Assembly: GCA_963664435.2 (NCBI GenBank)
Contig: CAXXKM010000001.1
Coordinates: 544,001-608,000 of the forward strand
Source: Longimicrobiales bacterium
GTDB lineage: Bacteria > Gemmatimonadota > Gemmatimonadetes > Longimicrobiales > Gaopeijiaceae
Direction: 5' to 3'
Length of the DNA: 64,000 bases
The notes under the pieces: model-generated
Seen by the model: only the letters and a program-made list of their open reading frames with translations
Database searches by the model: none
Told to the model about the DNA's origin: nothing
Position numbers and translations under genes: made by a program
Shown here: piece after piece, positions 41,423-62,829 of the stretch
How positions within the stretch are numbered: the first letter of the stretch is position 1
Layout of the letters: each line of letters starts with the position of its first letter

Positions 41423-43651
41423 TCAGGCGCCTGCCACCAGCCTCCACGCCTGGGCCACCAGGAAGCACACCACGAACCCGATCCCGAGCGGCGCCAGAGC
41501 CGAGACCGTCGTCCACTTCACGCTTCCGGTCTCCTTGTAGATGGTGTACAGCGTGGTGGAACAGGGATTGTGCAGCAGGCTGAAGAGCATGAGGCAGACG
41601 CCCGTCAGGAGCGTCCATCCGCCCGCAGCCAGCAGAGTGCCGACGTCCGCCGCCGAACTCAGCTCGAACATGACCCCGGCCCCCTCTCCGGTGCCCGCGA
41701 TGCCCGCGGTCAGCACGGTCAGCATGAGGATCGTGGGGATGACGATCTCGTTGGCGGGGATCGCGACCAGGTAGGCCAGCAGGATCACCCCGTTCAGCCC
41801 CAGCAGCACGCCCAGAGGATTCGACCAGGTCACGAAGTGCTCGGCCAGGCTGGCGTCGCCCACGACGATGTTGGACGTGAGCCAGATCACCGCCCCGGCG
41901 GGCATGGCGAACACGACCGCGCGCCAGAGCACGATCAGGGTCCGGTCGATGAGCGAAGTGTAGAGCGTCTGCAGGATGCGCGGGGGCCGGTACGGGGGAA
42001 GCTCCAGGCTGAAGGTCGACGCTTCGCCGCGCAGCAGGGTCTTCGAGAGCAGCCACGAGGTCGCGAACATGAAGACGATTCCCAGCACGGCCACCCCGAC
42101 CACGGCGGTCGCCGACACCAGGCCGGCCAGGTGCGCGGGCGCGACCGCCCCGATGAAGATGGTCGCGATCAGGATCTGCGTGGGCCAGCGGCCGTTGCAG
42201 AGCGAGAAGTTGTTGGTGACGATGGCCAGCAGGCGTTCGCGCGGACTGTCGATGATGCGCGTGGCCACCACCCCAGCGGCGTTGCAGCCGAACCCCATGC
42301 TCATGGTGAGCGCCTGCTTGCCGTGCGCCCCCACCCGGCGGAAGAGGCCGTCGAGGTTGAAGGCAACGCGCGGCAGGTAGCCGAAGTCCTCCAGCAGGGT
42401 GAAGAGCGGAAAGAAGATCGCCATGGGCGGCAGCATGACGGCCACCACCCATGCAGTGGCCAGATACACCCCGTCGAAGAGGAACCCCGAAAGCCACCAC
42501 GGCATGGAGAGCGCGGAACCGGCCCCGACCAGCCAGGGATGGACCTGGTCGACGAGCAGGGTGGCGAGCAGCGAGGACGGGACGTTGGCCCCCGCGATGG
42601 TGAGCCAGAACACAACCGTGAGGACGAGCAGCATGACCGGGAATCCGGTCCAGCGGCTGGTCAGGGCCCGGTCGAGGTTGCGGTCCAGGTCGAAGCCGAC
42701 GCGGCGCAGCCCCCTCACTTCCGAGGCCCGCGCGATGCGCTCCGATTCGCGGTAGAAGCCGGTAACCAGTGAATCGTGGAAGTCGGCGGGGAGCTTCCAG
42801 CGCAACCGGGAGGCCAGCTCGAGGACCTGTTCGCGCGCGGGTCCCGTATTCTCCCGCGCCTGCGGGCGGGCCGCCGCCGCCCCTTCGCGCCCGGCCCCGC
42901 CGATCTCCCCGGCACTCACCGCCTCCTGCACGCGTTCGTCCGCGTTGAGCAGGCGCAGCGCCACCCAGCGTGCATTGGGGAGTCCGGGAAAGGCCGTCTC
43001 GACCGCGGGCGCGAGGGCGGAGACCGCCCGCTCCACCTCGGGCGCGCGCGTGGCGGCGCGGAAGGGTGTCGTGGCCGTCCCGCCGGTCGCCATGTCGTGG
43101 ACCGCGCGCATCAGGTCGTCGATGCCCTCGCTCCGCCGGGCCACCGTGGCGACCACCGGCACCCCCAGTTCGCGCGCCAGCTTCTTCTCGTCGACGGCGA
43201 TGCCGTGCCGGCGCGCCTCGTCCACCAGGTTCAGGCAGACCACCACCCGGGAGGTGATCTCCAGGATCTGGAGAGCAAGGTTGAGGTTGCGCTCGAGGCG
43301 GGTCGCGTCGACCACGACCACGGTCACGTCGGGGCGCCCGAACAGGAGGAAGTCGCGCGCGACCTCTTCGTCGGTGCTGCCGGCCTGCAGGGAGTAGGTC
43401 CCGGGAAGATCGACCACCTTGACCCGGTGCTCGTCGTGCAGGAAGGCGCCCTCGGAGCGCACGACCGTCTTGCCCGGCCAGTTGCCGGTGTGCTGGCGGA
43501 GCCCGGTGAGCGCGTTGAACACGGTGCTCTTGCCCGTATTCGGGTTGCCCGCCAGGGCGACCAGGTAGTCCCACCGGCCGGGATTGACGCCCAGCTTCAC
43601 CAGGCGGGGCTCGTGGCCGGCGCCACACCCCCTCCGCCGGCGCGCGGTCAT
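41423..43651 (-). CDS. feoB: Ferrous iron transporter FeoB
   Basis: [51 protein letters not shown] overlap with the upstream gene. Confidence 0.95.
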
Positions 43652-44748
43652 GGCGACCCCGCTTCGCGGCTGCGGGTGGGCGCTGGCGGCTCGGGCGGCT
43701 CGGCGGCCAGCCCCGGGGCCGTCGCGCCCTCGGCCGGCGGCGCGATCTCCACCCTGGCCGCCTGCTCCCTCCGGAGCGCGATGGTCGCGCCCCGGATCTG
43801 GTAGGCGGTGGGGTCGCCGCCCGCCCCGCGCAGGGTCGCGCGCACGGGCGTGCCGGGAACGACTCCCAGATCCAGCAGGCGGCGCCGGGCAGGGCCCTGG
43901 CAGGCGGGCGCAATGCGGTCCACGACGCCGGTCTCGCCAAGCGCCAGCGCGGCGAGCGTCCTGGGCGGTTCGGACGGCATCACCATGTCCTCGGCCGGCT
44001 CCACCGTAACACTCGCTGCCGCAACCGCATCGAGAAGGTGTTCCCGCCCCTGCAACAGGAACCGGACCCCCGTCGGCGAGACGTCCGCGACGCGGATCTC
44101 CATGCCCGGAGAGAGTCCCTCCGCCAGCAACTCCAGGTAGATCTCGCGCGGCTCGTCCTCCAGATGAACGATGCGCGCCCCCGCCCCCTCGCGCAGCTGT
44201 GTGAGGGTGACCCCGGTGCGGGGCGGCACCTCGCCCCGGGCGGTCGGAATGGGATCGCCGTGAGGATCGAAACGGGGATGCCCCAGGCGCGCCGCGAGCG
44301 CATCCGTTTCGGCCACCGACATGCGGTGCTCCCGGACCTCCGCCTGCGCGTGCCAGTCGGCCTCCGCCACACCCGTGCGGTCGGCCAGGTAGCGCTCCCA
44401 CAACCGGTGGGTTCGCACGACACGGAGCGCGTAGGACCGGCCCGGACCGGTCAGGGAGACGGCCGTACCCTGCGCCTCCGCCAACCCCAGTTCGCACAGG
44501 CGGGTCACCAGGCGTCCCGCGCTTCCGCGGCGCATCCCGAGCCCTCCCGCGAGGCTCTCGAGCGTGGAGGGCAGGGCCAGGTACTCGCAGTTGAAGAGGT
44601 GCTTCAGCGCATCCTCGATTCGAACCCGCTCCGTCATGCGTGCGGCACCGAGGGCCCGTGCCAGGAGCCCCTTGCGCGGCCACAGCAGCGCAGCCGAACC
44701 GACCGCCGCCAGGGCGAAGACGAGTAGCGCGAATCCGGGCTCGATCAT
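43648..44748 (-). CDS. DtxR/MntR-family metalloregulator with N-terminal TM helix and two FeoA domains
   Basis: Hydrophobic N-terminus; [24 protein letters not shown]; FeoA-like [10 protein letters not shown] and [12 protein letters not shown]...[16 protein letters not shown]. Confidence 0.9.
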
Positions 44749-45703: not shown

Positions 45704-45734
45704 CCCGCGGCGTCCCCTCCCAACATCGTTGCCT

Positions 45735-45897
45735 CCGTCCTCATGCCGTGTCCGGTGTCCATCCTCATGCCGTGTCCGGTGTCCGTCCTCATGCCGTGTC
45801 CAGTGTCCGTCCTCATGCCGTGTCCAGTGTCCGTCCTCATGCCGTGTCCAGTGTCCGTCCTCATGCCGTGTCGGGCGCCCGTCCTCATGCCGTGTCC
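45735..45897. repeat. 24-bp tandem repeat, about 6.8 copies
   Basis: Unit CCGTCCTCATGCCGTGTCC(A/G)GTGT, head to tail with no spacers. Confidence 0.95.
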
Positions 45898-48189: not shown

Positions 48190-48666
48190 ATGCTACGTGC
48201 GAGTGTGTTGCTGGCCCTCCTGATCATGGTGTCCGGTTGCGCCCGTTGGATTCCGGCCCGGGTCGGCGAAGTTCCGCTCGGCACGGATGTCCGCCTGCGG
48301 CTGTCGGAGGAGGGCGCCGCGCAGTTGGAGGAACTCACCGGGACGCGCCAATCCGAGGTCTCCGGGCAGCTGCTGCAGTGGGACGGCGAAGTGATGGTGT
48401 CGGCCGCCCTGCAGGGCGCCGGAGCCGGCGCGAACAGCAGCAGCCTGCGCCAGCGGTTCGTGGTGGACGAGGAGGACATCCTCGGGGTGGATGTCAGGGA
48501 ACTGGACCGCACAAGGACCGGGATCTTTGTCGGCAGCGTCGCCGTGGTGGCGGGTTCGGCGATCGTGTGGGTGGTGTCGCAGCTCACCGGCGGCGGCACC
48601 GCGGCCCCGACCGACCCCCCGAACCCCGGACCCAGCGAACCATTCGTGCGCATTCGCATTCCCTAG
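48190..48666 (+). CDS. Hypothetical lipoprotein (paralog 1)
   Basis: GGAG RBS; VSGC lipobox; hydrophobic C-terminal helix; clearly similar to the next gene. Confidence 0.8.
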   Translation: MLRASVLLALLIMVSGCARWIPARVGEVPLGTDVRLRLSEEGAAQLEELTGTRQSEVSGQLLQWDGEVMVSAALQGAGAGANSSSLRQRFVVDEEDILGVDVRELDRTRTGIFVGSVAVVAGSAIVWVVSQLTGGGTAAPTDPPNPGPSEPFVRIRIP

Positions 48667-48783: not shown

Positions 48784-49257
48784 ATGATGCGCACCGGTCT
48801 GGCCCTGATCCTTCTCCTGACCGTATCCGGCTGCGCCCGATGGGTGCCGGCCCAGCTGGGGACGGTCCCGCCCGGCACCGACGTCCGCCTCCGCCTCTCC
48901 GAGGACGGCGCCGAGCAGCTTGAGGAGATGACCGGCGCGGGTACCACCGAGGTCACGGGAGAACTGCTCCAGTGGGAGCCTGAGGTGCTTGTATCCACCG
49001 CGCTTGGACCCTCGGCCATGCGCCTCGACCCGGGCCTGCGCCAGCGCCTTGTCCTGGATCCGGACAACGTGGTCGCGATCGACGTGCGCGAGGTCGACCG
49101 TACCCGCACCGGGCTTCTGGTGGGTGGCGTGGTGGCGGTGGCGGGATCTGCGATCGCCTGGGCGTTGGTCAACATCATCCGGGGCAGCGAAGGAGCACCC
49201 ACCTCACCGACGACGGATGTCCCCCAGGAGCCCTTCGTACGGTTGCGCTTTCCCTAG
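48784..49257 (+). CDS. Hypothetical lipoprotein (paralog 2)
   Basis: GGAGG RBS; VSGCARW...GTDVRLRLSE...DRTRTG shared with paralog 1. Confidence 0.8.
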   Translation: MMRTGLALILLLTVSGCARWVPAQLGTVPPGTDVRLRLSEDGAEQLEEMTGAGTTEVTGELLQWEPEVLVSTALGPSAMRLDPGLRQRLVLDPDNVVAIDVREVDRTRTGLLVGGVVAVAGSAIAWALVNIIRGSEGAPTSPTTDVPQEPFVRLRFP

Positions 49258-49449: not shown

Positions 49450-50691
49450 TCAGCTGCCGCCCTGGTAATAGGGGTTGCCGGCGAGCTCCTCCGAGGACAC
49501 CGGCCAGCGCCGGTTCGTCCCCAACTGCTTGGTCACCTCGTCCCACTGCCACGGCTTGATGTCGTAGTAGCGGTGGTCCTGAAGGCGGCGGCCTTCGACC
49601 ATGAACTCGAGCCTGCGCTCGTGAATGAGCTGTTCGTAGACCTCGCCGGTGTCCATGCTCATGAACGGCGACAGATCCCAGGCGGCGCGCACCATGTTGA
49701 TCTGGTTGACCGCCTCCTGGTAGTTGCCCGACACCAGGTGGCCCTCCGCCAGGATCAGCCGCGCCTCCTGCCAGCGGCTGACCGGAAGGTCGGCATCCAG
49801 GCCCGGGTACTTGAAGAACCGGTGCACGTCGCCCGTATGGGGCGGCGGCGCGGCGAGCTCGGGCGGGCCGACGCGCGTCCCGATGCGCGGATCCACCATG
49901 CCGGTCACCGGATCCTCGATGGCCACGTTGCGCGGATCGATGATGACGCCCGTGATCGACTGGTGGTACGTGTTGAGGCTGTTCAGCGAGCCCGGCTGCT
50001 GGTAGCGGCACGCGAAATAGAAATCGGGCTTTACCGCGAGCGCCGCCTCGGCGGCCGTCATGGCGGCCGTCATCTGGCCCATGTCCCTGCCGCGCTCGAA
50101 GTAGAGCGCCCGATGGACCCGGGCCTTGGTCGCAAGCGCCGCCGCCCGCAAGTCCGGGTTGCTCGCCTGGGCCACCTGGTCGAGCGTGGACAGCGTCTGT
50201 TCCAGCACGACATCCGGCGCCACCGGCGGCTCGCCGTTGAAGGGCACCTCTTTGAAGTGATCGGCGAGACCGATGCGCGCGAAGGCCTCCCAGAAGATGC
50301 CGCGCACGATGGTCGTGTCGGCGGGGTTCGACGCCTGCAACCTCCTCACTGCCTCCTCCGCGATCCAGCGGGCGGAAGACAGAGAGTTCCAGGCCCCGTT
50401 CTGGACCGTGTTGAACCCCTCCATGTGGCCCCACATGTGGAGCTCGGTGAAGGTGAAACTCGAAATGAATGTTACGTCGTCGGACTGGAGGGCGTTGGCC
50501 GCGACCATGCCGTCCCAGGCGTCGCAGACCACGCCCTCGGGCGTCGCGGCCAGAGCGGGAACCAGATCCGGCTCTTCCAGATCCGCGATCGTGAGGCTTC
50601 CCGGGTTGTCGACGGTGAACAGGTCACCGCATCCCGCTGCAATCAACACGGTGAACGAAAGTACGCCCAATCTCAATATGTGCATTCGCAT
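49450..50691 (-). CDS. RagB/SusD-like outer-membrane lipoprotein
   Basis: AAGC lipobox, VDNPG, EARLILAE, INMVR, HERRLEFMVEGRRLQD; follows susC. Confidence 0.88.
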   Translation of the reverse strand: MRMHILRLGVLSFTVLIAAGCGDLFTVDNPGSLTIADLEEPDLVPALAATPEGVVCDAWDGMVAANALQSDDVTFISSFTFTELHMWGHMEGFNTVQNGAWNSLSSARWIAEEAVRRLQASNPADTTIVRGIFWEAFARIGLADHFKEVPFNGEPPVAPDVVLEQTLSTLDQVAQASNPDLRAAALATKARVHRALYFERGRDMGQMTAAMTAAEAALAVKPDFYFACRYQQPGSLNSLNTYHQSITGVIIDPRNVAIEDPVTGMVDPRIGTRVGPPELAAPPPHTGDVHRFFKYPGLDADLPVSRWQEARLILAEGHLVSGNYQEAVNQINMVRAAWDLSPFMSMDTGEVYEQLIHERRLEFMVEGRRLQDHRYYDIKPWQWDEVTKQLGTNRRWPVSSEELAGNPYYQGGS

Positions 50692-50768
50692 GGTTATAAC
50701 TCCCCTTTAGTCAGAGATCCGCTCATCGCCAGTGGCGATCGATCCGATACCCGTCGCACACTCGCATC

Positions 50769-53700
50769 CTAGAACGTCGCCTGGAAACGAATGCCATAGC
50801 GTCTGGGGCTCGGCGGCTGACCGTAGTCCGAGTTCATGCCGAATGCGTTGTAGGGTCCACCGGACCGGGCATCGGGGATTCCGTGGTAGGGCGTCAGGGG
50901 ATCGGACATGCAGACATCCGCGGGGCACTTGTTCCAGAGGAACAGGTTGTTCGCCGACAATCTGACCACCAGGGAACTCATGCCCGCCAGCGAGGTCAGG
51001 AATCTCTCCGGAACGTTGTAGTTGACGGAGAGGTCCGCGAACCGAAGGAAGTCGGCCCTGAAGAGGTAGCTGGAAATCATCGAAGGATGCTGGTTGCCGA
51101 AGTCCTCCGCGACCCGCTGGCGCTCCTCCACCGAGGTGTTCGGGTCGTCCAGGATGGCTTCGAACTCGGCCACTCGGGGTGAATTCCGGGTAAAGGCGTC
51201 CTGAATGACCGACACCTCCGAGAACATGTGATAGTCGTACGCCCCGCTGAAGGTGGCGTTGACGCTCACGCCCCCTGGGAGGTCGAGCGAGGTGAGGAAG
51301 CTCCCGGTCCAGAGCGGGATGGGACGCCCCACGTACTCCAGCGAATCGCCGCCCGCTGCATTCTTGAGCTTGTTGGGCGTGATCTGGTTGAGCCTCGTGA
51401 GCTGCGCGATGGGCACCGCCACGGTGTAGGGGTTGCTGGGGTCGGGCACCGGAGCGATCCACGCGCCGGGCGTGTACCCCTCCTTCATGGTGGGATAGTA
51501 CCGGCCGGCGCTGGTACCGCCCTGGATGTGCACGCGGTAGGGGGGCACGCCGCCCATGTCGAGGATCTCGGAGTCATTCAGGGCGACCTGGAAGGTGGTC
51601 GACCATCTCAGGCTGGGACGGCGGACCCAGGTAACGTCCAGCGAAGACTCGAACCCCTGGTTGCGAATCTGGCCGACGTTGGAAACAACCGGCTGGAGGA
51701 AACCGGTGGAGGCCGCGGATGGCACGGGCAGAAGCGCGTCGCTGGTGGTCGCGTTGTAGTACACCAGGTCCAGCCCGACGCGACCGTCGAGGAAGCCGAA
51801 CTCCGTCCCGAACTCCCATTCCAGGGTGCGCTCGGGCTTCAGATCCGCGTTTCCGGGGTTGCCGGTTCTCACGATGGAGAGGTTGTTCACGGCGATGCCG
51901 GGCAGCCACGTCTGGGTGGCGTCGAACGCGCCGGGCTGCAGTCCCGCCGCGCCGAGCGCCGCCCGCACCCGGAACTGGTCCCAGCTCTGGAACGGCCAGA
52001 AGTCATGCTCCGACACAACCCAGGAGGCACCGCCCTTGGGGTACACCTGGAAGGCGAAGTTCTCACCGAAGGCCGAGTTGCCGTCCACGCGCATACCGGC
52101 GTTCAGGAAGAAGCGGTTCCAAAGCCCGACCTCCTCCTGGGCGTACACCCCGGCGTTGATGACCTCCTGGAAGGTCTCGTTCGGCGGCAGGAGCTGCGAT
52201 CCGGCCGGCAGCGTTGAGAGCTGGCGCAACGGGAAGTCCCGAACCCCGAGTGTCCTGAACCACTCCTCCTCCCAGAAGCTCTGGCCACCGACCAGCAGGG
52301 TGGAGGTCAGGTTCTCGTTGAAGTCGCGCGTCCACGAAGTCTTGAAGTCAAGCGTGGTGGCGGTGCGCTCGGAAGTGCGCACCAGGCGCTCGCCCTGTTC
52401 GTGATAGATGTTGAGGCCCTTGGCAACGTGCTCGATGTACTCCTCGGTCATCCGGTCCCGGCCCATGATGAGCTCCGAGCGGATGCCGTGGCCCCAGTCG
52501 TAGTTCAAGGCGCCGCTGAGCGTCACTCGCTGCTCGTCCTGGTTCGACGTCACGCTCGCGATCGGCTCGCTGTCCAGCGGCAGGAAGTGCTCGCTCGCGG
52601 AGAGCGGTCCGCTGTACCCGTGCGGCGGCGGCCACGCGATCTCGTAGGCGTTGACGCCGTAGCGCCCGCCGTAGGGGAAGCGCGGCGCCGGATTCCTGGG
52701 CGTCGCCAGGAAGAAGCCCCACAGGTATCCGCTCCCCCAGTTGAGCCCGTTCTGCCCGGGCTGGCGCCGGTCGCTGAACACGGTGTTCATGTCCACGCGA
52801 ATGCCCAGCCTCTCCGTGGCCTGCACCGTGAGGTTGGCGCGCAGGTTGGCGTCCAGGGTTCCCTGGAAGTCGCGGTATTCGCGGCCCATCTGCCCCACCT
52901 CGTCGCGGAGACGGCCGGAGGCATAATACTGTACCGTCGAGGTCCCGCCCCGCACGTCCGCGTTGAAGTCCATGACCGAGCCCCAGCCGCCGAGGTAGTC
53001 GAGGACGGGCTTGCCCAGTGTCTGCAACTGCTTGGTGTCGAAGTTGTAGCCCCACACTCCCTTCAGGCGGTCTTCGGGGATTCTCGTGCCGTCGAAGCCG
53101 GTCCCGAACGTCCACACCGGATCGCCGGCGCTTCCGCGCTTGGTGATGATCTGGATCACCCCGCTCGAGGCCTCGGTGCCGTACAGGGTCGCGGCCGCCG
53201 CGCCCTTGATGATCTCGATGCGCTCGATGTCGTTGGGGTTCAGCCGGTCGAGCGATGTCGCCTGCCGGGCGCCACCCACCTTGCTGTAGTTGGAGTCGAT
53301 GCGCACCCCGTCGACGTAGATGAGCGGGGCGCTCCGCTGCGTGAGGCTGACGGCCCCGCGCAGGAGAATCTGGCTCGAGGTCCCCACGTTGGGGGCGATC
53401 CCGGGCACCATCCCGGCGACACGCCCGGAGAGGGCCTCGGTGATGTTGGATATCGGCGCTGTGTTGATCGCTTCGGCCCCGAGCGTTTCGACCGTCGCGC
53501 CCAGCCGCCGCCGTTCGGTAACGACTCCGGTACCGGTGACGATCACCTCGTCCAGCGCGATCGCCTCCGATTCCAGCTGGACATCCACGTTCACGGTTTC
53601 CTCCGCCACCACAGTGACGTCCAGGGTCTGGGTCCCGTATCCGATGTAGCGGACCTCCAGAACGTGGCTGCCGACGGGAATGCCGAGCAGCACGAAACGG

Positions 53701-53894
53701 CCGTTGGCGTTGGTGACGTTGCCGACACCCTCTTCGGCGATGCTCACCTGCGCGCCCGCCAGCGGCAGCCCGGTGCCCACCTCCTGGACCGAGCCCGTGA
53801 TGGTGCCCGTCTGGGCGGACGCGGGAGCGGCCGCGACCATGGCCATGGCGCATATCGCGCCGGTAAAGGTGACGACCTGACGAAGGACTTTCAT
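50769..53894 (-). CDS. SusC/RagA-like TonB-dependent transporter
   Basis: Signal peptide; N-terminal carboxypeptidase-regulatory-like domain; LDEVIVTG; PLIYVDGV; DIERIEIIKGAAAATLYGTEASSGVIQIITKRG; NADLKPE; terminal F. Confidence 0.93.
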   Translation of the reverse strand: MKVLRQVVTFTGAICAMAMVAAAPASAQTGTITGSVQEVGTGLPLAGAQVSIAEEGVGNVTNANGRFVLLGIPVGSHVLEVRYIGYGTQTLDVTVVAEETVNVDVQLESEAIALDEVIVTGTGVVTERRRLGATVETLGAEAINTAPISNITEALSGRVAGMVPGIAPNVGTSSQILLRGAVSLTQRSAPLIYVDGVRIDSNYSKVGGARQATSLDRLNPNDIERIEIIKGAAAATLYGTEASSGVIQIITKRGSAGDPVWTFGTGFDGTRIPEDRLKGVWGYNFDTKQLQTLGKPVLDYLGGWGSVMDFNADVRGGTSTVQYYASGRLRDEVGQMGREYRDFQGTLDANLRANLTVQATERLGIRVDMNTVFSDRRQPGQNGLNWGSGYLWGFFLATPRNPAPRFPYGGRYGVNAYEIAWPPPHGYSGPLSASEHFLPLDSEPIASVTSNQDEQRVTLSGALNYDWGHGIRSELIMGRDRMTEEYIEHVAKGLNIYHEQGERLVRTSERTATTLDFKTSWTRDFNENLTSTLLVGGQSFWEEEWFRTLGVRDFPLRQLSTLPAGSQLLPPNETFQEVINAGVYAQEEVGLWNRFFLNAGMRVDGNSAFGENFAFQVYPKGGASWVVSEHDFWPFQSWDQFRVRAALGAAGLQPGAFDATQTWLPGIAVNNLSIVRTGNPGNADLKPERTLEWEFGTEFGFLDGRVGLDLVYYNATTSDALLPVPSAASTGFLQPVVSNVGQIRNQGFESSLDVTWVRRPSLRWSTTFQVALNDSEILDMGGVPPYRVHIQGGTSAGRYYPTMKEGYTPGAWIAPVPDPSNPYTVAVPIAQLTRLNQITPNKLKNAAGGDSLEYVGRPIPLWTGSFLTSLDLPGGVSVNATFSGAYDYHMFSEVSVIQDAFTRNSPRVAEFEAILDDPNTSVEERQRVAEDFGNQHPSMISSYLFRADFLRFADLSVNYNVPERFLTSLAGMSSLVVRLSANNLFLWNKCPADVCMSDPLTPYHGIPDARSGGPYNAFGMNSDYGQPPSPRRYGIRFQATF

Positions 53895-54000
53895 GCTTCC
53901 ACCTCCTGCTTGGGGAACGGCACCGATCCTGCTTACGGGAATCCTCCCTGGATTCGCCGGGTCTGCGGGGCAGCAGGCGCGCAGCCTGCGACCGCGCGAA

Positions 54001-55806
54001 CTAACACATGGCGCAGTTGTCGTTGTTGATGGCACCCAGCCGCTCCAGCAGAGCGATGGTCGCCGGGAACGGGCGAACGTTGTAGCTCGGACTGTTGGCC
54101 ATGTCAACGGTGGTCTGGCCGAGCCGCGTCACCGCATGTACGTCGGCGCCGCGCTCGATCAGATACATAATGACCTCGTTGTCCCCTCGCGACGCGGCGT
54201 TGTGCAGCGGCGTGCGGGCATCCAGGTCCCGGGCGTTGACGTCGGCGCCCAGCTCCTCGACGAGGTACCTGACCGCCGGGAGCCATCCGCGCGGCACATA
54301 CCGGTGTTCGTTTGCGGCACGCTGGTCGTATCCGACGCCGGTGGCCGCGTGGATGGCGTACATGGCCGCGCCTCCCGCCGGGACGGGCGGTATGCCGCTC
54401 TGGTCCACGGCGGCCGAGTAGTCCGCAGCCACAGGCGCAACGCCGGCGTCCGGCGGCTTTCGGCTGGGGATGTCCGGGTCCGCCCCGTAGGCGACCAGCA
54501 GCTTCATCGCGGCGACGTCGACGCCGAGCGCGGCGCGGAAGAAGGGCGTCGTCCCCTCCAGGTTGGCGCTGACGAGACGCTGATGCGCCCACCAGAGGTC
54601 CCTGGCGAGCCGCGCGTCGGGATCCGCGCCCGCCCGCAGCAGCGCCTCCATCACGTGGAGGTAGTCGGCCTTCTGTGCCTCGTGCGCGCGCGGCTGGGGA
54701 TAGAAGGACGTGCCGGCCCATTGCACGTTGATCACGGCATAGAGCGGCGTCGCCCCGGGATCGCTGGCAACGTTGGGGTCGGCCCCCCGGTCGAGGAGAT
54801 GCAGCCCCAGATCGAAACGCCCGTTCAACATGGCGATCAGCAGCGGGCTGGTCCCGTCCCCGCTGGTCTGGTCGATGTCCGCGCCCCCGTCCAGAAGCGC
54901 GTCCATTGCCTCCAGGTGCCCGGCGCGGGCCGCGTGGAGAAGCGGGGTGAGCCCGCCCCACCTTCCGACCAGGGCCGGCTGGCCCGGAGGGGGATTGGTG
55001 GATATCGGCGAGATTCCCTGCACTTCGCCGTCCAGGATCAGCACCTCGCCCCTGCGCTGCACTTCGCGCGCGGCCTCGATGGCCACCGCCACCTGGCCGG
55101 GCGTCGGAGGTTCTCCCTCGTCGACCGGCCCCCAGGGGTCCTCCCGCGGGTCGTTCTCCAGCCAGTCCGGGCGGAACTGCGCCAGCACCTCGTACAACCG
55201 GTGCTGGGCGGCGATGTCCACCGTCGCCCGCCGATCCACATCCTCGATCACGGATTCGGCCAGCGAGACATCCGCTCCCAGGTCGAGCAGCGTGCGGATG
55301 GCCTGGGCGCGGTTGCGGGCGGCCGCGAAGATCAACGGCGTCTGCTTCCATTCCCGCTCGCGAGCGTTCAGGTCGGCGCCGGCATCGGCCAGAACCCGGA
55401 TGGCCTCCGAACTGCCTGACTCGGCCGCCAGGTGCAGCGGGGTCACGCCGCTGTTGGTGGTCTTCGCGTGCACCTCGGCACCCGCCGCGAGCAGCGCCTC
55501 CACGACCCCGGCCCCTCCTGCCCGGCTCGCGAGGTGGAGGGGCGTGTAGCGTCCGATGCGGGTGCCCGCCTCCAGGTTCGCGCCCGCGGTGATCAGCAGC
55601 CCCGCCATCTCCGCGTCAGCGTGACGCGCCGCCCAGTGAAGCGCGGTCATGCCGTCGCCCTGGGCCTCGTTGGCGTCGGCCCCCTGCTCCAGCAGGGCGC
55701 GCACCGCCTCGAGATCCCCGCGCATGGCCGCATCGGCTACCGGGCCGTCTGCCGCCGGACCGGCCAGCAGCAGAGCGATGATCGCGAAGGCGGTCGTCGG
55801 ATTCAC
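54001..55806 (-). CDS. Exported ankyrin-repeat protein
   Basis: Signal-like N-terminus; many G.TPLH.AA repeats; C-terminal CAMC. Confidence 0.9.
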   Translation of the reverse strand: MNPTTAFAIIALLLAGPAADGPVADAAMRGDLEAVRALLEQGADANEAQGDGMTALHWAARHADAEMAGLLITAGANLEAGTRIGRYTPLHLASRAGGAGVVEALLAAGAEVHAKTTNSGVTPLHLAAESGSSEAIRVLADAGADLNAREREWKQTPLIFAAARNRAQAIRTLLDLGADVSLAESVIEDVDRRATVDIAAQHRLYEVLAQFRPDWLENDPREDPWGPVDEGEPPTPGQVAVAIEAAREVQRRGEVLILDGEVQGISPISTNPPPGQPALVGRWGGLTPLLHAARAGHLEAMDALLDGGADIDQTSGDGTSPLLIAMLNGRFDLGLHLLDRGADPNVASDPGATPLYAVINVQWAGTSFYPQPRAHEAQKADYLHVMEALLRAGADPDARLARDLWWAHQRLVSANLEGTTPFFRAALGVDVAAMKLLVAYGADPDIPSRKPPDAGVAPVAADYSAAVDQSGIPPVPAGGAAMYAIHAATGVGYDQRAANEHRYVPRGWLPAVRYLVEELGADVNARDLDARTPLHNAASRGDNEVIMYLIERGADVHAVTRLGQTTVDMANSPSYNVRPFPATIALLERLGAINNDNCAMC

Positions 55807-55816
55807 CGGCGGACCC

Positions 55817-57259
55817 CTATCGGCTCGACGACTGCGCCGCGGCCACGGCGCCACCGGGATAACCCAGAGCGAACTCGCCCGTGCTGTCGCCGAAGCTGTC
55901 CATGTCGTCGTGCCCCAGCCGGTGCAGCAGACTCAGGAAAACGTTCGCCATGGGAGTCCCGTCGGGGGCCTTCAGGTGAACGTTGCCTTCGAGTAGCCCG
56001 TTTCCGTGGCCCAGCAGGATGAGCGGGCAGCGCCGGTGGTTGTGGACGTTGCCGTCCGCCATCGGCGAACCCCACACGATCACCGACTTGTCCAGCAGGC
56101 TGGCGTCTCCCTCCATGCTCGCCTGGAGCTTCTCCAGGAAGTACGGCAGCGGGCTCATGCGGTACTGGGCGATCTGGTTGAAGTCGAGGATGGATTCTTC
56201 GCTGTTGCCGTGGTGCGAGGCCGGATGGAACGGCGTGGTGGTGCCGCTCTCCGGATGGATCCGGTTCGAGGCGTCGCGCCCCATCTTGAAGGACACCACC
56301 CGCGTCATGTCGGTCTGGAATGCCAGAACCTGCAGGTCGAACATCAGCTCCATGTGCTCGGCGTAGGAATCGGGCACGCCGGCGGGGGCTTCCGGCAGCT
56401 CGCGCTGCTCGCCGCTCGAGTTGAACTCCTCCACCTTCTGAATCCGCCGCTCGACCTCGCGCACGTTCTCGAGGTACCGGTCCAGCCGGTTGCGGTCCTC
56501 GGTCCCCACCCGGGCCCTGAGCGTCGCCACCTCATCCACGATCCAGTCGAGGATGCTCTGGTTGGTGCGCCTGCGCACCGCCCGCTCTTCGTTGCTTCCG
56601 CCGGCGCCGAAGAGGAGGTCGAACGCCGCGCGCGGGTCGCGGATCATCGGCAGCGGCTCGGTCGGCGACGCCCAGCTGATCGCATCCGTGTACGCGCAGT
56701 GGTAGTTGTACCAGCATCCTCCGCCCTGCCCCAGGTTCTCGATGCAGAGCTGCAGCGACGGCAGCGCCGTGTCCTGCCCGAAACGGCGCGCCTGCAGCTG
56801 GTCGAGGGATACGCCCACATAGATGTCCGAGCCCTGCGTCTGCTTGGGATGGCATTGGGTCAGGAACACCGCCGTCGAGCGAAAGTGATCGCCGCCGATC
56901 TCGTTGGGTTCGTAGGCCTCCGCCATGCGAACATCGGTGTTGCTGACGATCGTGAGGTGGTCCTGGAAGCGTTCGAGCGGTTTGAGCACGTTCGCATCGG
57001 TCATGCGAAAGTTTCGCCCGGTCGTCTCGGGCGCGAACAGGTGCTGGCTCGCGCCCCATTCGCTGCAGCCCGGCACCCCGTGCACCTCTTCGATGCACAC
57101 CAGGCGGGTGCGGTCCTCGAGAGCGGCCGAGGCGCGCCCCCAGCGCCCCGGTCCGGCCGGGATCATGGCGTCCAGGAGGGGAAGCGCCACCGTGGCCCCC
57201 ATCCCGCGAACGAAGGTGCGGCGGGGAATGTGCGCGCCCGTGATGAAGCTGGTCGTCAT
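55817..57259 (-). CDS. DUF1552-family protein with Tat signal
   Basis: PRRTFVRGMGATVALPLLDAM leader; SLDQ, SLQL, AISW, DPRAAFDLLFG, LAFQTDMTRV, HPASHH. Confidence 0.85.
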   Translation of the reverse strand: MTTSFITGAHIPRRTFVRGMGATVALPLLDAMIPAGPGRWGRASAALEDRTRLVCIEEVHGVPGCSEWGASQHLFAPETTGRNFRMTDANVLKPLERFQDHLTIVSNTDVRMAEAYEPNEIGGDHFRSTAVFLTQCHPKQTQGSDIYVGVSLDQLQARRFGQDTALPSLQLCIENLGQGGGCWYNYHCAYTDAISWASPTEPLPMIRDPRAAFDLLFGAGGSNEERAVRRRTNQSILDWIVDEVATLRARVGTEDRNRLDRYLENVREVERRIQKVEEFNSSGEQRELPEAPAGVPDSYAEHMELMFDLQVLAFQTDMTRVVSFKMGRDASNRIHPESGTTTPFHPASHHGNSEESILDFNQIAQYRMSPLPYFLEKLQASMEGDASLLDKSVIVWGSPMADGNVHNHRRCPLILLGHGNGLLEGNVHLKAPDGTPMANVFLSLLHRLGHDDMDSFGDSTGEFALGYPGGAVAAAQSSSR

Positions 57260-57317
57260 CGTCGTGCTCCCTCTATTGTTGCGCCCCGGGCACAGGCCCC
57301 GAAGCATGTGTCCTCTG

Positions 57318-59798
57318 CTATCCGCCCTCTACGCCTTCAGCCGTCGCAGCGCCGATGTCCTGCCTGCTGCGGAAGGCGTCGCTGGTCGCGACGCCCAGGA
57401 TGAAGGAAGAGATTCTGTAGTCGTTCGCCTCCGCCTCGCGGGCGATGGCGCGTATGGTCGGCCCGTCGTAGTACTCCACGCGACGCCCGAGGGCGTAGGC
57501 CAGCAGGTTCATGGTGAACGTGCGCACCAGCGGAATCGGGCGCTCCAGGAGCGCGTCCGCGAGCTGAACCGCGTTGGTCAGCTGCGTGCCGTCGTAGAGC
57601 TGGCCCCGGGCATCGAGTGGTGACCCGCTCTCGCGAATCCGCCATTCCCCGGTCACCCCGAAGTTCTCCAGCGCCACGCCGATGGGGTCCATGAACTGAT
57701 GGCAGGCGGCGCACACCGGGTTGCGCCGATGGATCTCCAGGCGCTCGCGCGTGGTGAGCAGCCGGCCCTCGCCTTCGTCTTCGGTCTCTTCGAGAGCCGG
57801 CACGTCGGGCGGAGGCGGCGGGGGCGGCGCGTCAAGCAGCACTTCCATCACCCATTTGCCCCGCAGGACCGGCGACGTCCGCGTCCCCATGGACGTCGAC
57901 ATCAGCACGCTGCCGTGCCCCAGCAATCCCTGGCGCAGCATCCCCTCGGGATACTCCACGCGCCGGAAGCCCTCTCCGACCACGCCCTGGATGCCGTAAT
58001 GCTCCGCCAGACGCTGGTTCATGAAGCTGTAGTCGGCGCTGTAGAGCTCCAGCAGGCTCCGGTCCTCACGCACCAGATGATCGAAGAACAGCTCGGTTTC
58101 GCGCCGCATGGCGGCCTTGAGCTGCTCGTTGAAGTGGGGGAACCAGAAGGCGTCCGGCTGCACCCTCTCGAGATCCTGGAGCCTCAGCCACTGGGTGGCG
58201 AAGCGTGTCGCCAGGCTCTCGGAGCGCGGATCGGCCAGCATCCGGCGGACCTGCTGCTCCAGAACGCCGGAGCCCGAGAGCCGGTTGCGGCTCGCGAGCG
58301 AGATCAGTTCGTCGTCCGGCTGCGTTCCCCAGAGGAAATACGACAGCCTGGATGCGAGAGCGAGGTCGCTGATCGGATAGCTCCCTCCCGCCTCGAGCGC
58401 GTTCTCCGGGGCCTCCTCGATTCTGAACACGAAGTGCGGGCTCGCCAGGATGGCCTCGAGGACGGTGCGCACGCCGGTCTCGAACCCCCCCTCGGCGGCC
58501 CCCACGTCGTAGAACGACATCAGGCCCGCGAGGTCCGGGTCGGTGAGTGGCCGGCGATAGGCCTGCCGGGCCAGCCTTGCAGCGATCTCGCGGGCACAGG
58601 ATCGTTCGGCCTCCGGCGACGTCGGCCGGCAACTGAAGACCCGCTGCCGGCTCGGGGTCTCGGAGACGCCCTGCGGATCGAGGGGGCCGCGGACCGTAAG
58701 GTCTCTGAGGTGGGTCAGAACGACGAATCCCGTCCCGATGCGGAAGCGGACGCCTGCGTTGGACCAGCCGAAGGGCTCCTGCAGGTCGGCGTAGGGACCG
58801 TCCTGCTTCCTGATGAACGCCGCCGCGACCCGATGCTGGCCCGCGCTTACGAAGACGGGATCGGTGAACTGGTTCCAGTTGGGGCCGAAGTCCGCGTCCC
58901 GCCGGAGCTCCTCCACCGGAAGCAGAACGACGCGCTCCCCGTCGATGGAGATGTCCATTTCCGCGAAGCGCTCATGGTCCCCCGCCCAGAACGACATCTC
59001 GAAGATATACTCGCCGTCCGCGGGGAAATGGTGGTCGACCACGATGCCGCCGCGGGTGCCGTAGGGCGCGCCCTCCACATGGTCCCACTCGTGCTGGGAC
59101 TGGTACGTGGACACGAGGTAGGTTTTGGAGTCCGAGGTCGCATCGGGGTGCCCCAGCACCAGACGGCTGACGTCGTTGGCGGCGTTCAGATACGAATTGA
59201 GGAGCGTAGGCGACAGCGGCTGGGAGACCGCCATGTGGTCGAAGTTCCCGAGATAGAGGTCCGGGGGAAGCCACTGGCTGGCGTCGACATCGATGCCGAA
59301 GAGGTCCAGGACGGCCTTCTCGTACTCGGCCCGGTTGAGCCGCTGGAAGCTGCGGTTGCCCGGGTTGGGGTTGGCCGCCGCATAGCCGTCGATGGCCTGC
59401 TCAAGGGTCTCGACGAGCGCAAGGAGCGTGTCCCCCGCCGGACGGGGGATGCCGGGCGGAGGCATCATCCCGGTGCGCAGCTTGGCGACCATGCGTTCCG
59501 CCGTCTCCCAGTCCTCCCACGGGGCGCTCACGTCGAAGCCCTGGACCGACATGTTGCCGGTCATCATGGCGTCGTTGTGACAGACCTGGCAGTACTGGCG
59601 GACGACGGCGGTGAGGGCTTCGGACGAGGGGGCGGTGCGGGGCGCCGCGGACCGGCCCGCGGCGCCGGGAATGTGGCTGGCCGCGAGCGCCGGGGCGGAA
59701 AGTCCGATCGCAGATTGGGACCTCGGCGCGCGCCCTCCATCATGGCCCACAAACAGGGCCAGACCCAGGAGCGAGATTCCTGGAAGGAAAGCTCTCAC
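57318..59798 (-). CDS. Diheme DUF1592-type protein (planctomycete cytochrome c plus DUF1587/1595/1592/1588/1585-like domains)
   Basis: GGAGGT RBS then GTG; CQVCH and CAACH; RLNRAEY, LASRLSYFLW, TSPVLRGKWV, MDPIGVALENF, YALGR. Confidence 0.88.
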   Translation of the reverse strand: MRAFLPGISLLGLALFVGHDGGRAPRSQSAIGLSAPALAASHIPGAAGRSAAPRTAPSSEALTAVVRQYCQVCHNDAMMTGNMSVQGFDVSAPWEDWETAERMVAKLRTGMMPPPGIPRPAGDTLLALVETLEQAIDGYAAANPNPGNRSFQRLNRAEYEKAVLDLFGIDVDASQWLPPDLYLGNFDHMAVSQPLSPTLLNSYLNAANDVSRLVLGHPDATSDSKTYLVSTYQSQHEWDHVEGAPYGTRGGIVVDHHFPADGEYIFEMSFWAGDHERFAEMDISIDGERVVLLPVEELRRDADFGPNWNQFTDPVFVSAGQHRVAAAFIRKQDGPYADLQEPFGWSNAGVRFRIGTGFVVLTHLRDLTVRGPLDPQGVSETPSRQRVFSCRPTSPEAERSCAREIAARLARQAYRRPLTDPDLAGLMSFYDVGAAEGGFETGVRTVLEAILASPHFVFRIEEAPENALEAGGSYPISDLALASRLSYFLWGTQPDDELISLASRNRLSGSGVLEQQVRRMLADPRSESLATRFATQWLRLQDLERVQPDAFWFPHFNEQLKAAMRRETELFFDHLVREDRSLLELYSADYSFMNQRLAEHYGIQGVVGEGFRRVEYPEGMLRQGLLGHGSVLMSTSMGTRTSPVLRGKWVMEVLLDAPPPPPPPDVPALEETEDEGEGRLLTTRERLEIHRRNPVCAACHQFMDPIGVALENFGVTGEWRIRESGSPLDARGQLYDGTQLTNAVQLADALLERPIPLVRTFTMNLLAYALGRRVEYYDGPTIRAIAREAEANDYRISSFILGVATSDAFRSRQDIGAATAEGVEGG

Positions 59799-60077: not shown

Positions 60078-61862
60078 CTACCGGGGAATCACCGGCAGCG
60101 TGATGTGCGACGGATACCGGGCGTTGTGGTAGATCGTCTGACTGGCCGACTGCACTTCGGTCTCGAGATGGACCGGGCCGCCGGTGTTCGGGTTGCGGTC
60201 GTACTTGGGGAAGTTGCTGCTCGAGATCTCGACGCGGATCTGGTGGCCTTCCTGGAAAAGGTTGCTGCTCGCCCACAGATCGATGTTGAACTCGTACACC
60301 GTGCCCGGTTCCAGCAGCTCGAAGTCCCTGAAGTCGGGACTGCTGTGATAGCGCGCGCGCAGGATGCCATCGGCGATGTTGATGGCCTTTCCGTCCGGAT
60401 GGACGTCAACCAGCATGGCGGTGAAGTCGGTGTCGGGTGCGGTGGTCGATGCGTATAGCGTGGCCGTGATCGGGCCGGTTACCTCCACGGCCTCCTCCAG
60501 CGGCGGGGTGCTGAACACCAGGATGTCCTCCCGCTCCGCGATGTCCGCCCGGTCGAAGGGGCCGGGGGGCGTGGGCCCGAACATGAGGTTGCCGCCGCGG
60601 GTGGGGACCGGGTTCATCGGGTCGTAGACGAACTCGTCGACCGGGTCGGCGGCTCCCGGCATCTCCGCGCTCAGGGTCCCGTCGCCGCCTGAGCCGTTCG
60701 CGTTGCCCCCGCTGTGGAAGTAGTAGTTCGTGTACTGGGTGCGGGCGATCGGCCACTCGTTCTCGGAGCGCCAGACGTTCTCGCCCATGACGAAGATCCG
60801 CACCGGCGGCTCGTCCAGATAGCCGTTGTCGGCTCCCTGGAGCAGGGCATCGAACCACTTCACGTGCAGGCTGTCGAAGTCGACGGTGGCGTCCGGCCCG
60901 AAATCGATGCCGTCGTACACGAAGTTCGGGACGCTGGCGTGCGGCCAGGGGCCGATGAGCAGCTTCTGATTCTCCCGCGCGTACTCGTTGTGGCCCTTCT
61001 CGACCATGCCCGTGTAGCTGACCAGAGTGCCGTCGAGGAAGACATCGTACCACCCGCCGATATTCAGGGAAGCCGCGGCGAAATCCTCCAGGCGCGCTTC
61101 CGAGTCGAGCACTTCCCAGTAGGCGTCGTAGGTCGGATGCATCACGAAGTCGCGCCACCAGGGATTGTCCTGGCCCGTGGCCGCGCCCATCTCCAGCAGC
61201 GGCATGGTCCAGAGCACCTGGTCCCAGTCCGGGTTGCCCGCCTGGCCGGTGCGCCCGCCCATCCCCGACGCCCAGCCGATGCGCGAGCCGAGCGCGAGGG
61301 CGCCGCCTGGATAGGCCGTGTCGAAGTAGTAGTTGAACGGGGTCACCCGGGGGGCCATCGCCTTCAGGTATGGGGATCTGAACTCCGCGCCCTTCCACTG
61401 CGTGGTGGCCAGGTAGGAGTTGCCGTGGGTGCCCACCTGTCCGTCCGACCATGGCTGCTGGCCGATCCAGTTCTGCGTGTCGTGGCTGTCGTTGGCCTCG
61501 GCCAGGTAGGGATACCAGCTGCCCTCGGAGTCGAAGCGCCCGCGCACGTTCTGATGGACGTAGACGTATCCGCGCTCGGCCCAGCGCAGGCCCTCCTCCC
61601 ACGAGGCGGCGTCGGAGCCGTTGTCGTAGGGGTCGCGGATCAGCAGCGCGGGATGGCGGCCCGGCGCGGCCGGCCGGTAGACATCCGTGGAGAGAAGCGT
61701 GCCGTCGCGCATGGGCACCATGAGGTTGTGGTGCACGATCGCGCTCTCGCCGGCGCGGAATTCACCGCCGTGCAACTGCTGCGCCTCCAGCGGAGCCGTG
61801 GACAGCGAAAGAAGCAGAACGAGCCCGCCTGCGGCGGTCCTTCCAATGGTACGCGACTTCAT
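60078..61862 (-). CDS. CocE/NonD-family hydrolase, exported
   Basis: Signal peptide; VPMRDG, RGRFDSEG, GNSYLA nucleophile, GGWYD, GPWPH, SSNFP. Confidence 0.92.
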   Translation of the reverse strand: MKSRTIGRTAAGGLVLLLSLSTAPLEAQQLHGGEFRAGESAIVHHNLMVPMRDGTLLSTDVYRPAAPGRHPALLIRDPYDNGSDAASWEEGLRWAERGYVYVHQNVRGRFDSEGSWYPYLAEANDSHDTQNWIGQQPWSDGQVGTHGNSYLATTQWKGAEFRSPYLKAMAPRVTPFNYYFDTAYPGGALALGSRIGWASGMGGRTGQAGNPDWDQVLWTMPLLEMGAATGQDNPWWRDFVMHPTYDAYWEVLDSEARLEDFAAASLNIGGWYDVFLDGTLVSYTGMVEKGHNEYARENQKLLIGPWPHASVPNFVYDGIDFGPDATVDFDSLHVKWFDALLQGADNGYLDEPPVRIFVMGENVWRSENEWPIARTQYTNYYFHSGGNANGSGGDGTLSAEMPGAADPVDEFVYDPMNPVPTRGGNLMFGPTPPGPFDRADIAEREDILVFSTPPLEEAVEVTGPITATLYASTTAPDTDFTAMLVDVHPDGKAINIADGILRARYHSSPDFRDFELLEPGTVYEFNIDLWASSNLFQEGHQIRVEISSSNFPKYDRNPNTGGPVHLETEVQSASQTIYHNARYPSHITLPVIPR

Positions 61863-61953: not shown

Positions 61954-62829
61954 TCAGTTGCGGTCGGACTCCCCGATGGCCGCGTGGATGGCCTCCACCG
62001 AGACATCCGCGATCCAGTCCACGAGCTCGCGCCCGAGCGTCAGGGTGCGGGGGATGGGCGCCAGGTCGACGCCGTTGATCGAGAAGTGTCCCGCGCGGAT
62101 GCGCTGCTCCATGCGTACGGTGGTGGGATCCGTGAGCATCATGATGGAGGTGGCGCTGAACTCGTCGTGAAGGCCGGGGTCCTGCATCACCTCGTTGATG
62201 CCGCGCTCCCGCAGCCATTCCTGCCGCTGCACCCAGTTGTAATACTCGGGAACATGGTGGATGCTGGTCTTCCCATCGGTCCACTTGGCGGAAAGGGCCT
62301 GCGCCACCTCGAGTTGCGGCTGCTGATTGCCGCCGCTGTCGCCGATGAGGAGGATGTGCTCGAAGCCGTTGGCCCGCAGGGCGGTGGAAACATCGGTGAG
62401 CACGCTCTTGAAGGTCTCGACCCTCACCCCGATGGTGCCCGGATAGCGGATGGTGCCGGGTTCCAGGTCGATCTCCCCTTCGGGTACGTACTTGATGATC
62501 GGGGCGATGAGGGCATTGCCCAGCTTGCGCGCAATCGCCTCGGCCGTCTGCTGCAGGATGTAGTTGTGCTTGCCGCCCGCCAGGTAAGGGCCGTTTTCCT
62601 CCACTCCTCCGGTGGGCACGAGCACCGTCGTCTTCCCGGCACGGATCGCGTCGCGCACCTCCATGAAGGTGAGTTCCTCGATCCAGACGGACTCCAGTGC
62701 GTCGATCGGCCTGGGCGTGTCGGGATCGATCGGATTTCCGCCGCTCCCGGGCCTGGGCGCCTGCTGCGCGTCGACCGCGTTCGGGAGAAGGATCAGGGCG
62801 AGGGCGAACAGCTTCACGAACCGGGCCAT
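61954..62829 (-). CDS. Creatininase-family amidohydrolase, exported
   Basis: Signal peptide; EELTFMEVRD, PTGGVEENGP, YPGTI, GDSGGNQ. Confidence 0.82.
   Translation of the reverse strand: MARFVKLFALALILLPNAVDAQQAPRPGSGGNPIDPDTPRPIDALESVWIEELTFMEVRDAIRAGKTTVLVPTGGVEENGPYLAGGKHNYILQQTAEAIARKLGNALIAPIIKYVPEGEIDLEPGTIRYPGTIGVRVETFKSVLTDVSTALRANGFEHILLIGDSGGNQQPQLEVAQALSAKWTDGKTSIHHVPEYYNWVQRQEWLRERGINEVMQDPGLHDEFSATSIMMLTDPTTVRMEQRIRAGHFSINGVDLAPIPRTLTLGRELVDWIADVSVEAIHAAIGESDRN

Follow-up and report, generated by a model that had tools for sequence, protein, structure and literature searches.

A SusCD-type importer linked to a conserved DUF1592–DUF1552–ankyrin gene trio in a Longimicrobiales bacterium

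The five-gene block

The window analysed here, a stretch of 64,000 nucleotides from a Longimicrobiales bacterium (assembly GCA_963664435.2, contig CAXXKM010000001.1, positions 544,001 to 608,000), contains a block of five open reading frames (ORFs) that are all encoded on the minus strand. In order, they code for a DUF1592-type dihaem protein, a DUF1552 protein, an exported ankyrin-repeat protein and a SusC/SusD pair. The coupling of this SusCD importer to the preceding three genes, termed the trio below, is real, conserved and not described before in the literature searched. The original prediction, made from the DNA letters without database searches, had described five same-strand genes with short gaps. 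The ORFs, their motifs and the gaps (DUF1592–DUF1552 58 bp, DUF1552–ankyrin 10 bp, ankyrin–susC 106 bp, susC–susD 77 bp) agreed with that description, and a Pfam and NCBIfam check recovered all of the protein families (PSD/PSCyt3, HXXSHH, Ank, SusC and SusD).

The DUF1592-type protein (826 aa; 57318..59798, minus strand, as for all five genes) matched Pfam PSD3, PSD5, PSD4, PSCyt3 and PSD2, each over its cut-off. It is followed by the DUF1552 (HXXSHH) protein (480 aa; 55817..57259), which has a twin-arginine N-terminus and matched PF07586 with an E value of 9e-84 and 282 bits, and by the ankyrin-repeat protein (601 aa; 54001..55806; Pfam Ank), which has a hydrophobic N-terminus and ends in CAMC. 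The SusC/RagA-type TonB-dependent transporter (1041 aa; 50769..53894) combines CarbopepD_reg_2, Plug and TonB barrel domains; it scored 403.9 on TIGR04056 (cut-off 368.25) and stayed below the cut-off for the short TIGR04057 signature (36.8 versus 46.2 bits). The SusD/RagB-type lid lipoprotein (413 aa; 49450..50691) carries a lipobox-like AAGC and reached 37.3 bits on PF07980 (cut-off 23.1). The nearest solved chains of the transporter were SusC/RagA proteins and the lid matched SusD entries in the PDB. With a TonB-dependent transporter over the TIGR04056 cut-off and a SusD lipoprotein directly after it, the two genes constitute a SusC/RagA–SusD/RagB pair. The closest relatives carry the labels Longimicrobiales/Gemmatimonadetes.

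Upstream of the block and on the same strand lie genes for an exported CocE/NonD (S15) hydrolase (60078..61862, 279 bp upstream of DUF1592; TIGR00976, 470 bits) and an exported creatininase-family amidohydrolase (61954..62829; PF02633). No terminator-like site was found between any of the five genes. On the minus strand two terminator-like sites were located, one within DUF1592 at 58944 and one shortly before its start at 59820, which is fewer than expected by chance. One RNA run shared 0.07 of the sampled sequence words, which is no evidence of expression or habitat. There was no Rfam match within the window, and the ankyrin–susC and CocE–DUF1592 gaps folded no better than shuffled sequences (z -0.20 and 0.15).

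The trio as a fixed unit

The genome contains 12 DUF1592, 11 DUF1552 and 12 matching ankyrin genes, and five trio units lie within 65 kb on contig C1. From a survey of GTDB the best 79 loci were analysed (the best 80 of 545 confirmed matches were kept). DUF1592 was encoded upstream of DUF1552 in 78/79 of these loci and the ankyrin protein downstream in 77/79, with the misses at contig ends. The DUF1592–DUF1552–ankyrin trio is a fixed unit, present in about 12 copies in this genome. Each of 18 other genomes of the genus had 3–13 DUF1552 matches, and at least one was present in 62 of 151 genomes of the class. DUF1592/DUF1552 pairs are very widespread, with 2772 clusters at 50% identity and E values up to 1e-30.

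The DUF1592/DUF1552 pair has already been published with its chemistry uncharacterised; the transporter link is what is new here. In the passages available of He et al. (2017, PMC5615132), the Group III 'planctomycete-specific cytochrome c' gene (PSCyt3 plus PSD2–5) stands next to DUF1552, occurs in multiple copies and is proposed to have a role in carbohydrate use. Group III is recognised by PSCyt3 with PSD4, usually accompanied by PSD2, PSD3 and PSD5, and by an adjacent DUF1552 gene. The window pair, with its 58-bp spacing, has the same domain set and the same adjacency and falls into this group. It differs by having a dedicated ankyrin gene as a constant third partner and by the linked or inserted susCD; the supplement files searched contain no mention of ankyrin or TonB. 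Neither the trio nor the susCD link is described in the literature searched, whose coverage leaves out most subscription journals.

In 13 Vicinamibacteria/Acidobacteriota loci (L018:13497-14123, L028, L029, L031, L034, L036, L040, L047 and L050–L054) a protein of 210–260 aa without a Pfam match is encoded directly after the ankyrin gene on the same strand, possibly a fourth component in that lineage. L156 and G162 show that a more divergent subfamily of DUF1592/DUF1552, which scores lower on the profiles of this genome and has a weak ankyrin match, co-occurs in the same family. In G162 there are 13 DUF1552 genes but just 2 SusC.

Linkage of susCD to the trio

The original prediction was open to refutation by an absence of the susCD linkage from related genomes. 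The linkage was found throughout the genus, in another genus and in several orders, and it is enriched in this genome. The ankyrin–susC junction lay inside one continuous DNA alignment in 18/18 other genomes of the genus, and 13 of these alignments extended over at least 10.2 of 10.5 kb. The creatininase and CocE genes occupied the same upstream position in all five genus genomes inspected and in G320, which belongs to another genus and also shares the order of the five genes. An order susC–susD–x–trio occurred in G217, L037 and G181.

A paralogous locus of the genus has the order DUF1592–susC–susD–DUF1552–ankyrin, in which the susC start overlaps the DUF1592 stop (ATGA) and 25 bp separate susD from DUF1552. 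Both junctions were found in one alignment in 13 of the 18 genus genomes and at least one junction in 16, with no match at threshold in G006 and G015. If the trio is an operon, a susCD pair inside it must be on the trio's transcript. The order susC–susD–DUF1552–ankyrin was likewise conserved within the genus.

Four of the 12 trio units of this genome, which has 17 susCD pairs as defined by SusD, have a co-oriented susCD pair no more than one gene away, whereas random placement would yield 0.26 (p 0.00025). As a control, co-oriented three-gene windows of secreted genes, which overlap and are rich in crudely predicted secreted proteins, adjoined susCD in 2/165 cases (Fisher p 1.7e-4). The four linked SusCs belong to one six-member clade among the 16 full-length SusCs of this genome (support 0.97), the deeper node of which was left open by an IQ-TREE quick tree. 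In the subclade of the window SusC (FastTree support 1.0), five of eight members were linked, across three orders. L037 had been identified by way of its trio, and leaving it out gives four of seven.

Several results weigh against a general coupling of importer and trio. Eight of the 12 units in this genome are without an adjacent susCD. With profiles built from the proteins of this genome, a full susCD pair was found within 3 kb in only 2/75 of the loci outside the genus (L037 and L023), where 59/79 of the GTDB loci had at least 3 kb of sequence downstream of the ankyrin gene; L030 and L076 showed partial SusC-like matches only, and none of the 31 loci labelled Acidobacteriota had a SusC/SusD match. 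In ten chosen single-contig genomes of other genera, 2/48 DUF1552 genes lay at most 7 kb from a co-oriented susC (0.83 expected, p 0.20), a count that rose to 4/48 at a distance of up to 10 kb (1.1 expected, p 0.03). When 301 genomes of the class were searched in the opposite direction, with SusD, 12 loci outside the genus were obtained at E values up to 1e-25, those of G320 and G217 among them; 10 of the 12 had no trio in the flanks examined, some of which end at contig ends. DUF1552 had no match in the genomes G168 and G262. The one-gene threshold used above was set after the loci had been seen, and for direct adjacency the count is 2/12 (p 0.025); moreover, the members of the genus are not independent. 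The genes next to the trios were diverse, both the first one downstream (55 loci) and the co-oriented one upstream (32 loci). A metagenome scan with SusC returned only two identical loci, a short contig and a weak match.

Because most trios in this genome and outside the genus are without an adjacent susCD pair, the importer is an optional, lineage-specific accessory of the trio. This divides what had been predicted. A survey of neighbourhoods bears out the trio as a fixed unit, but susCD adjoins few loci outside the genus; similarly, the importer proposed to feed the enzyme is linked to it in this lineage, yet is absent from nearly all loci outside this family.

Such a distribution might also arise if trio and susCD merely shared a neighbourhood, being co-regulated in exported catabolic islands where the cargo of the importer is not the substrate of the trio. 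The many trios without susCD are in line with this explanation, as are the linked trios, which are not monophyletic and whose SusCs are only about 30% identical to each other, the clustering of five units within 65 kb on contig C1, and genome G168, which has this SusC lineage and no DUF1552 match. It accounts poorly for the susCD pair that sits inside a trio with overlapping start and stop codons at a locus kept across the genus, for the rarity of susCD next to other secreted gene triples (2/165 windows) and for the fact that the four linked SusCs, out of 16 analysed, all fall into a single clade of six. We consider a shared neighbourhood unlikely. The descent of the linked loci from a single ancestral five-gene block duplicated in the genome was rejected, as the linked trios do not group together (FastTree, low support).

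In this genome the susCD-inside locus has an apparent loss of about 5.5 kb between 5-bp microhomologies, which removes most of susC, susD and DUF1552; relatives in which the locus is assembled are intact.

The DUF1592 dihaem protein

The DUF1592 protein comprises a signal peptide, an N-terminal cytochrome c-like domain, PSD3, an insert resembling the beta-sandwich of a carbohydrate-binding module (CBM; about residues 218–376), PSD5, PSD4, PSCyt3 and PSD2. The first haem motif, C70-x-x-C73-H74 (CQVCH; 59577..59591, minus strand), lies in the N-terminal domain and the second, C696-x-x-C699-H700 (CAACH; 57699..57713, minus strand), in PSCyt3. C70, C73, H74 and M112 were kept in 70/70 cognates, as was the second motif, which is preceded by an invariant H690. 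M112 is a candidate sixth ligand of haem 1. Two PF01578 genes (cytochrome c assembly) provide for c-type cytochrome maturation in this genome. By the two CxxCH motifs and the maturation genes, the protein classifies as an exported c-type cytochrome with predicted haem attachment. Mean identity was higher in PSCyt3 (76%) than in the insert (56%) and the N-terminal haem domain (52%).

An AlphaFold2 (AF2) model of residues 55–819 had a mean predicted local distance difference test (pLDDT) score of 86.7 and a predicted template modelling (pTM) score of 0.88. Within this model the insert matched the jelly rolls of CBM36, CBM6 and CBM35 (best Z 9.9, root mean square deviation (rmsd) 2.4–3.0, about 108 residues). 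Sequence searches of the PDB with DUF1592 and DUF1552, either single or as profiles, gave nothing significant, and neither model had a Foldseek match at E 0.001.

In the passages available, Cellvibrio japonicus Cbp2D and Teredinibacter TERTU_2913/3803 are X183 + DUF1587 + X132 proteins (PMC8981238, PMC10916295, PMC12542752). Cbp2D shares the DUF1587 annotation and a CxxCH domain with the DUF1592 protein, and by annotation alone X132 would be the PSD/PSCyt3 core. Unlike the DUF1592 protein it is secreted with a CBM2 and a quinone-binding domain, and the same passages name no DUF1552, ankyrin or SusCD partner for it. Deletion of Cbp2D impairs growth of Cellvibrio on cellulose (PMC8981238, PMC12542752). 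The present finding may bear on the role of Cbp2D in cellulose use through the apparently common core.

Predicted fold, histidine-rich site and export of DUF1552

The AF2 model of DUF1552 (pLDDT 72.6, pTM 0.82) aligned in VIA-align with members of the alkaline-phosphatase superfamily (best Z 15.4, rmsd 4.5, 273 aligned residues; 67 chains with Z of at least 8), to which the best Foldseek match (E 5e-3) also belonged. DUF1552 is predicted to have an alkaline-phosphatase/sulfatase fold. Its predicted core is like that of sulfatases, NPP, PafA, LtaS and EptA (Z 12–15, rmsd 3.4–4.9). It differs from this superfamily by an identity of about 10% with no significant profile match, by histidines that apparently stand for the nucleophile and acidic ligands, and by its pairing with a cytochrome. 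The ESM Atlas held no usable DUF1552 match beyond the protein's own family.

The predicted histidine-rich site comprises H60, H125, H345, H349, H350, M400, H406 and H408. The HPASHH motif covers residues 345–350 (56210..56227, minus strand), and its H345 and H349 were kept in 82/82 diverse members and H350 in 74/82. H125, H345, H349 and H406 were kept in 81–82 of these 82 proteins (H125 in 81/82), while H60, M400, H408, C182 and C188 were kept in 69–70/70 members of its own subfamily. The active-site register was derived by comparing the order of secondary-structure elements with NPP motifs from other loci. In this register the first-strand Asp corresponds to H60, the nucleophile Thr to H125, DxxxH to H345/H349 and the DH of SDHG to P399/M400, and the positions of the NPP acidic ligands are taken by Asn/His, Gly and Ile/Met/Leu. 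In DUF1552, His appears to replace the hydrolytic nucleophile and the acidic ligands. If the register is right, this loss favours redox chemistry. His and Met ligands suit Cu or Fe, and redox chemistry on an alkaline-phosphatase fold would, to our knowledge, be the first for that superfamily. The redox role put forward in the original prediction gains from this putative site and from the two invariant CxxCH motifs of DUF1592, as judged from conservation.

The register itself meets some resistance. HHalign gave DUF1552 no significant match among NPP/PafA-like profiles (probability no higher than 1%), a scan with a position-specific scoring matrix placed only one of the four motif registers (SDHG) first, and H125 lies in a low-confidence segment (residues 112–126, pLDDT <50), leaving the register to topology. 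Among the 50 fold matches listed, all were sulfatases, NPPs, phosphatases or phosphotransferases, 67 chains reached a Z of at least 8 as given above, and sulfatases neighbour PSCyt genes in the passages available of PMC5615132. On these grounds DUF1552 might be a divergent metallo-hydrolase or transferase of that superfamily, working for instance through a phospho-His intermediate, and the role of the haems would be structural or regulatory. The Ser/Thr/Cys nucleophile and the acidic ligands are, however, not kept by the proposed register, and the near-invariant pairing with a dihaem protein would be left unexplained, which makes such a hydrolase or transferase improbable in our judgement.

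The DUF1552 leader carries an RRTF twin-arginine motif in which R13-R14 was invariant in 70/70 proteins, and a TatC gene is present in the genome. We infer export by the twin-arginine translocation (Tat) pathway. PF10518 matched 28/82 DUF1552 family members at E values up to 1, the window protein not being among them. In the leader (residues 13–34) the h-region is conserved, with P27 invariant in 82/82 proteins. Because this h-region is unusually conserved and was modelled partly as beta strands, the leader may do more than direct export.

The ankyrin protein

The ankyrin protein family is specific to the trio. Its C-terminal CxxC (54015–54004) was present in 71/77 near-full-length homologues, and N499-x-H501-R502, W363, W405 and W423-R424 were conserved as well, W363, W405, R424 and H501 among them being non-ankyrin residues. 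Because it keeps these invariant residues, the protein fits a dedicated subunit or a maturation factor. It had been predicted as a scaffold or maturation factor; the residue data are compatible with a subunit as well as with a maturation factor and do not separate the two. In the ESM Atlas the C-terminus retrieved ankyrin clusters only. A function as host-directed effector was rejected, as Dot/Icm family scores were far below the cut-off and genomes with the label groundwater Acidobacteriota also have the ankyrin gene as a constant part of the trio.

According to the passages available, the ankyrin protein Cj1386 traffics haem to catalase in Campylobacter (PMC4518328). In both systems the ankyrin gene lies directly downstream of a haem-enzyme gene, a likeness drawn from the description of Cj1386; the window protein has 601 aa and a terminal CxxC. 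Together with the His/Met-rich site of DUF1552 and the CxxC, this precedent would agree with a SusCD pair that imports a metal chelate or cofactor for maturation of the trio and not its substrate. Four to five SusCDs with about 30% identity are linked to trios in one genome, for which different substrates are a better fit, and relatives of the window SusD sit beside peptidases. Cofactor import is highly improbable.

The ankyrin paralogues L003:14639-16603 and L001:11105-13471 form a clade of their own without the terminal CxxC and with a longer, Cys-containing tail. In the latter (G000:C1:287104-289473), a product of the apparent loss of about 5.5 kb described above, the signal peptide and CarbopepD_reg_2 domain of a SusC are joined in frame to the ankyrin protein. 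Among the paralogues, the L003 trio stands nearest to the susCD-inside trio, yet is without susCD. Its DUF1592 gene (G000:C1:838869-841198) was called at 520 aa and aligns in two pieces; it may be frameshifted or interrupted.

Probable substrates and proposed function

No carbohydrate-active enzyme (CAZyme) was detected among the 11 proteins scanned between 46.8 and 63.9 kb, in which the only CBM-like fold is the one inside DUF1592. Genes for CocE, creatininase, S9 peptidase or amidohydrolase proteins occur in the linked loci, and the flanks of unlinked relatives of the window SusD contain an amidohydrolase as well as peptidases of the S9, M14 and M24 families. The substrates are probably small and of the peptide/amide type. 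Import of peptides by a SusCD-type system is exemplified by RagAB, as described in the passages available (bioRxiv 10.1101/755678). With RagAB and the polysaccharide utilisation loci (PULs) of Bacteroidota, the block has in common a tandem susC–susD with co-oriented exported enzymes (10.1101/755678). It differs from them in its Gemmatimonadota host, in that no CAZyme or PUL-type regulator was seen in the block, and in the cargo enzyme, which is a predicted haem/metal redox complex. The original prediction had called the block a redox analogue of a PUL. Its architecture, including the tandem susC–susD, supports that comparison, but the block is not a PUL because its neighbours are mostly peptidases and amidohydrolases and the locus has no CAZyme.

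Some clues point to sugars and speak against the peptide/amide class: DUF1592 has its CBM-like insert, loss of Cbp2D impairs growth on cellulose, and the susCD-inside locus has a weak GH116-like neighbour. They would be explained if the importer brought oligosaccharides or glycoconjugates that the trio oxidises, which would make the block a true redox PUL. The CBM6/35/36-like insert, the GH116/MGH1-like gene, the CBM-bearing PSCyt proteins with their proposed carbohydrate role (PMC5615132) and the Cbp2D phenotype (PMC12542752), the latter two as far as the available passages go, fit such a glycan system. A jelly roll with a Z of 9.9 denotes a fold and not sugar binding, however, and neither the absence of CAZymes in or beside the window block nor neighbourhoods dominated by peptidases and amidohydrolases would be expected of it. 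We rate oxidation of imported glycans as quite unlikely. A pathway resembling peptidylglycine monooxygenase with NHL/PAL-type genes was rejected, since these genes were not enriched (10 copies in this genome, two within eight genes of a trio). An NHL-repeat (PAL-like) gene lies between susD and DUF1592 in G217 (L136:10753-11895) and another directly upstream of DUF1592 in the close relatives L014–L016:6037-7287.

The interpretation we prefer, to which we give about an even chance, is that the five genes form one uptake-and-oxidation unit in which SusCD delivers small organic substrates, probably of the peptide/amide type, to a periplasmic haem-c-linked metallo-oxidoreductase made up of the trio. 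The five genes would share one transcript. Compounds imported by SusC and SusD would reach a three-protein enzyme in the periplasm and would be trimmed by the CocE and creatininase-type hydrolases. Catalysis would take place in the Tat-exported DUF1552, whose former phosphatase metal pocket would now be lined with His and Met ligands. As a His would stand where the nucleophile was, the protein would hold a redox metal (Cu or Fe) and form no phospho-enzyme intermediate. Electrons might then pass from DUF1552 to the PSCyt3 haem, on to the N-terminal haem and finally to a periplasmic acceptor. The CBM-like insert of DUF1592 could help to bind the substrate, and the ankyrin protein with its terminal CxxC would be a dedicated third subunit or a metal-loading factor. 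In most bacteria the trio would function without a linked importer, with susCD as an accessory.

A more far-reaching version, which we put forward tentatively and hold to be doubtful, regards the trio as a new class of periplasmic oxidoreductase on the alkaline-phosphatase fold. The former bimetal pocket, now a copper-type His/Met centre (H345/H349/H406 and H60/H125/M400), would be connected to two c-haems and receive its metal from an ankyrin-CxxC chaperone, and each Longimicrobiales paralogue with its own SusCD would constitute a 'redox utilisation locus' for peptide/amide-type compounds. SusD lids co-purify with their cargo. With SusCD inside or beside the trio, the ligand bound to SusD could therefore name the substrate of the trio, and if the oxidoreductase class is real, SusCD ligands would show what a family of thousands of uncharacterised enzymes acts on.

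Other features of the window

A small lipoprotein without a Pfam family is encoded on the plus strand at 48784..49257, convergent on susD, and a second tandem copy of the same family at 48205..48666 (plus strand). The family accompanies susCD pairs. Because all seven members in this genome sit within one gene of a susCD pair, the small lipoproteins may serve this SusCD lineage as accessory proteins.

About 5 kb beyond susD, at 41423-44748 on the minus strand, lie what we take from their translations to be a FeoB-like iron transporter gene and an upstream DtxR/FeoA-like gene. The window also contains two tandem repeats, one at 45734-45897 between two genes (24-bp unit, 6.8 copies, 94% match) and one at 29033-29323 inside a small ORF (33-bp unit, eight copies).

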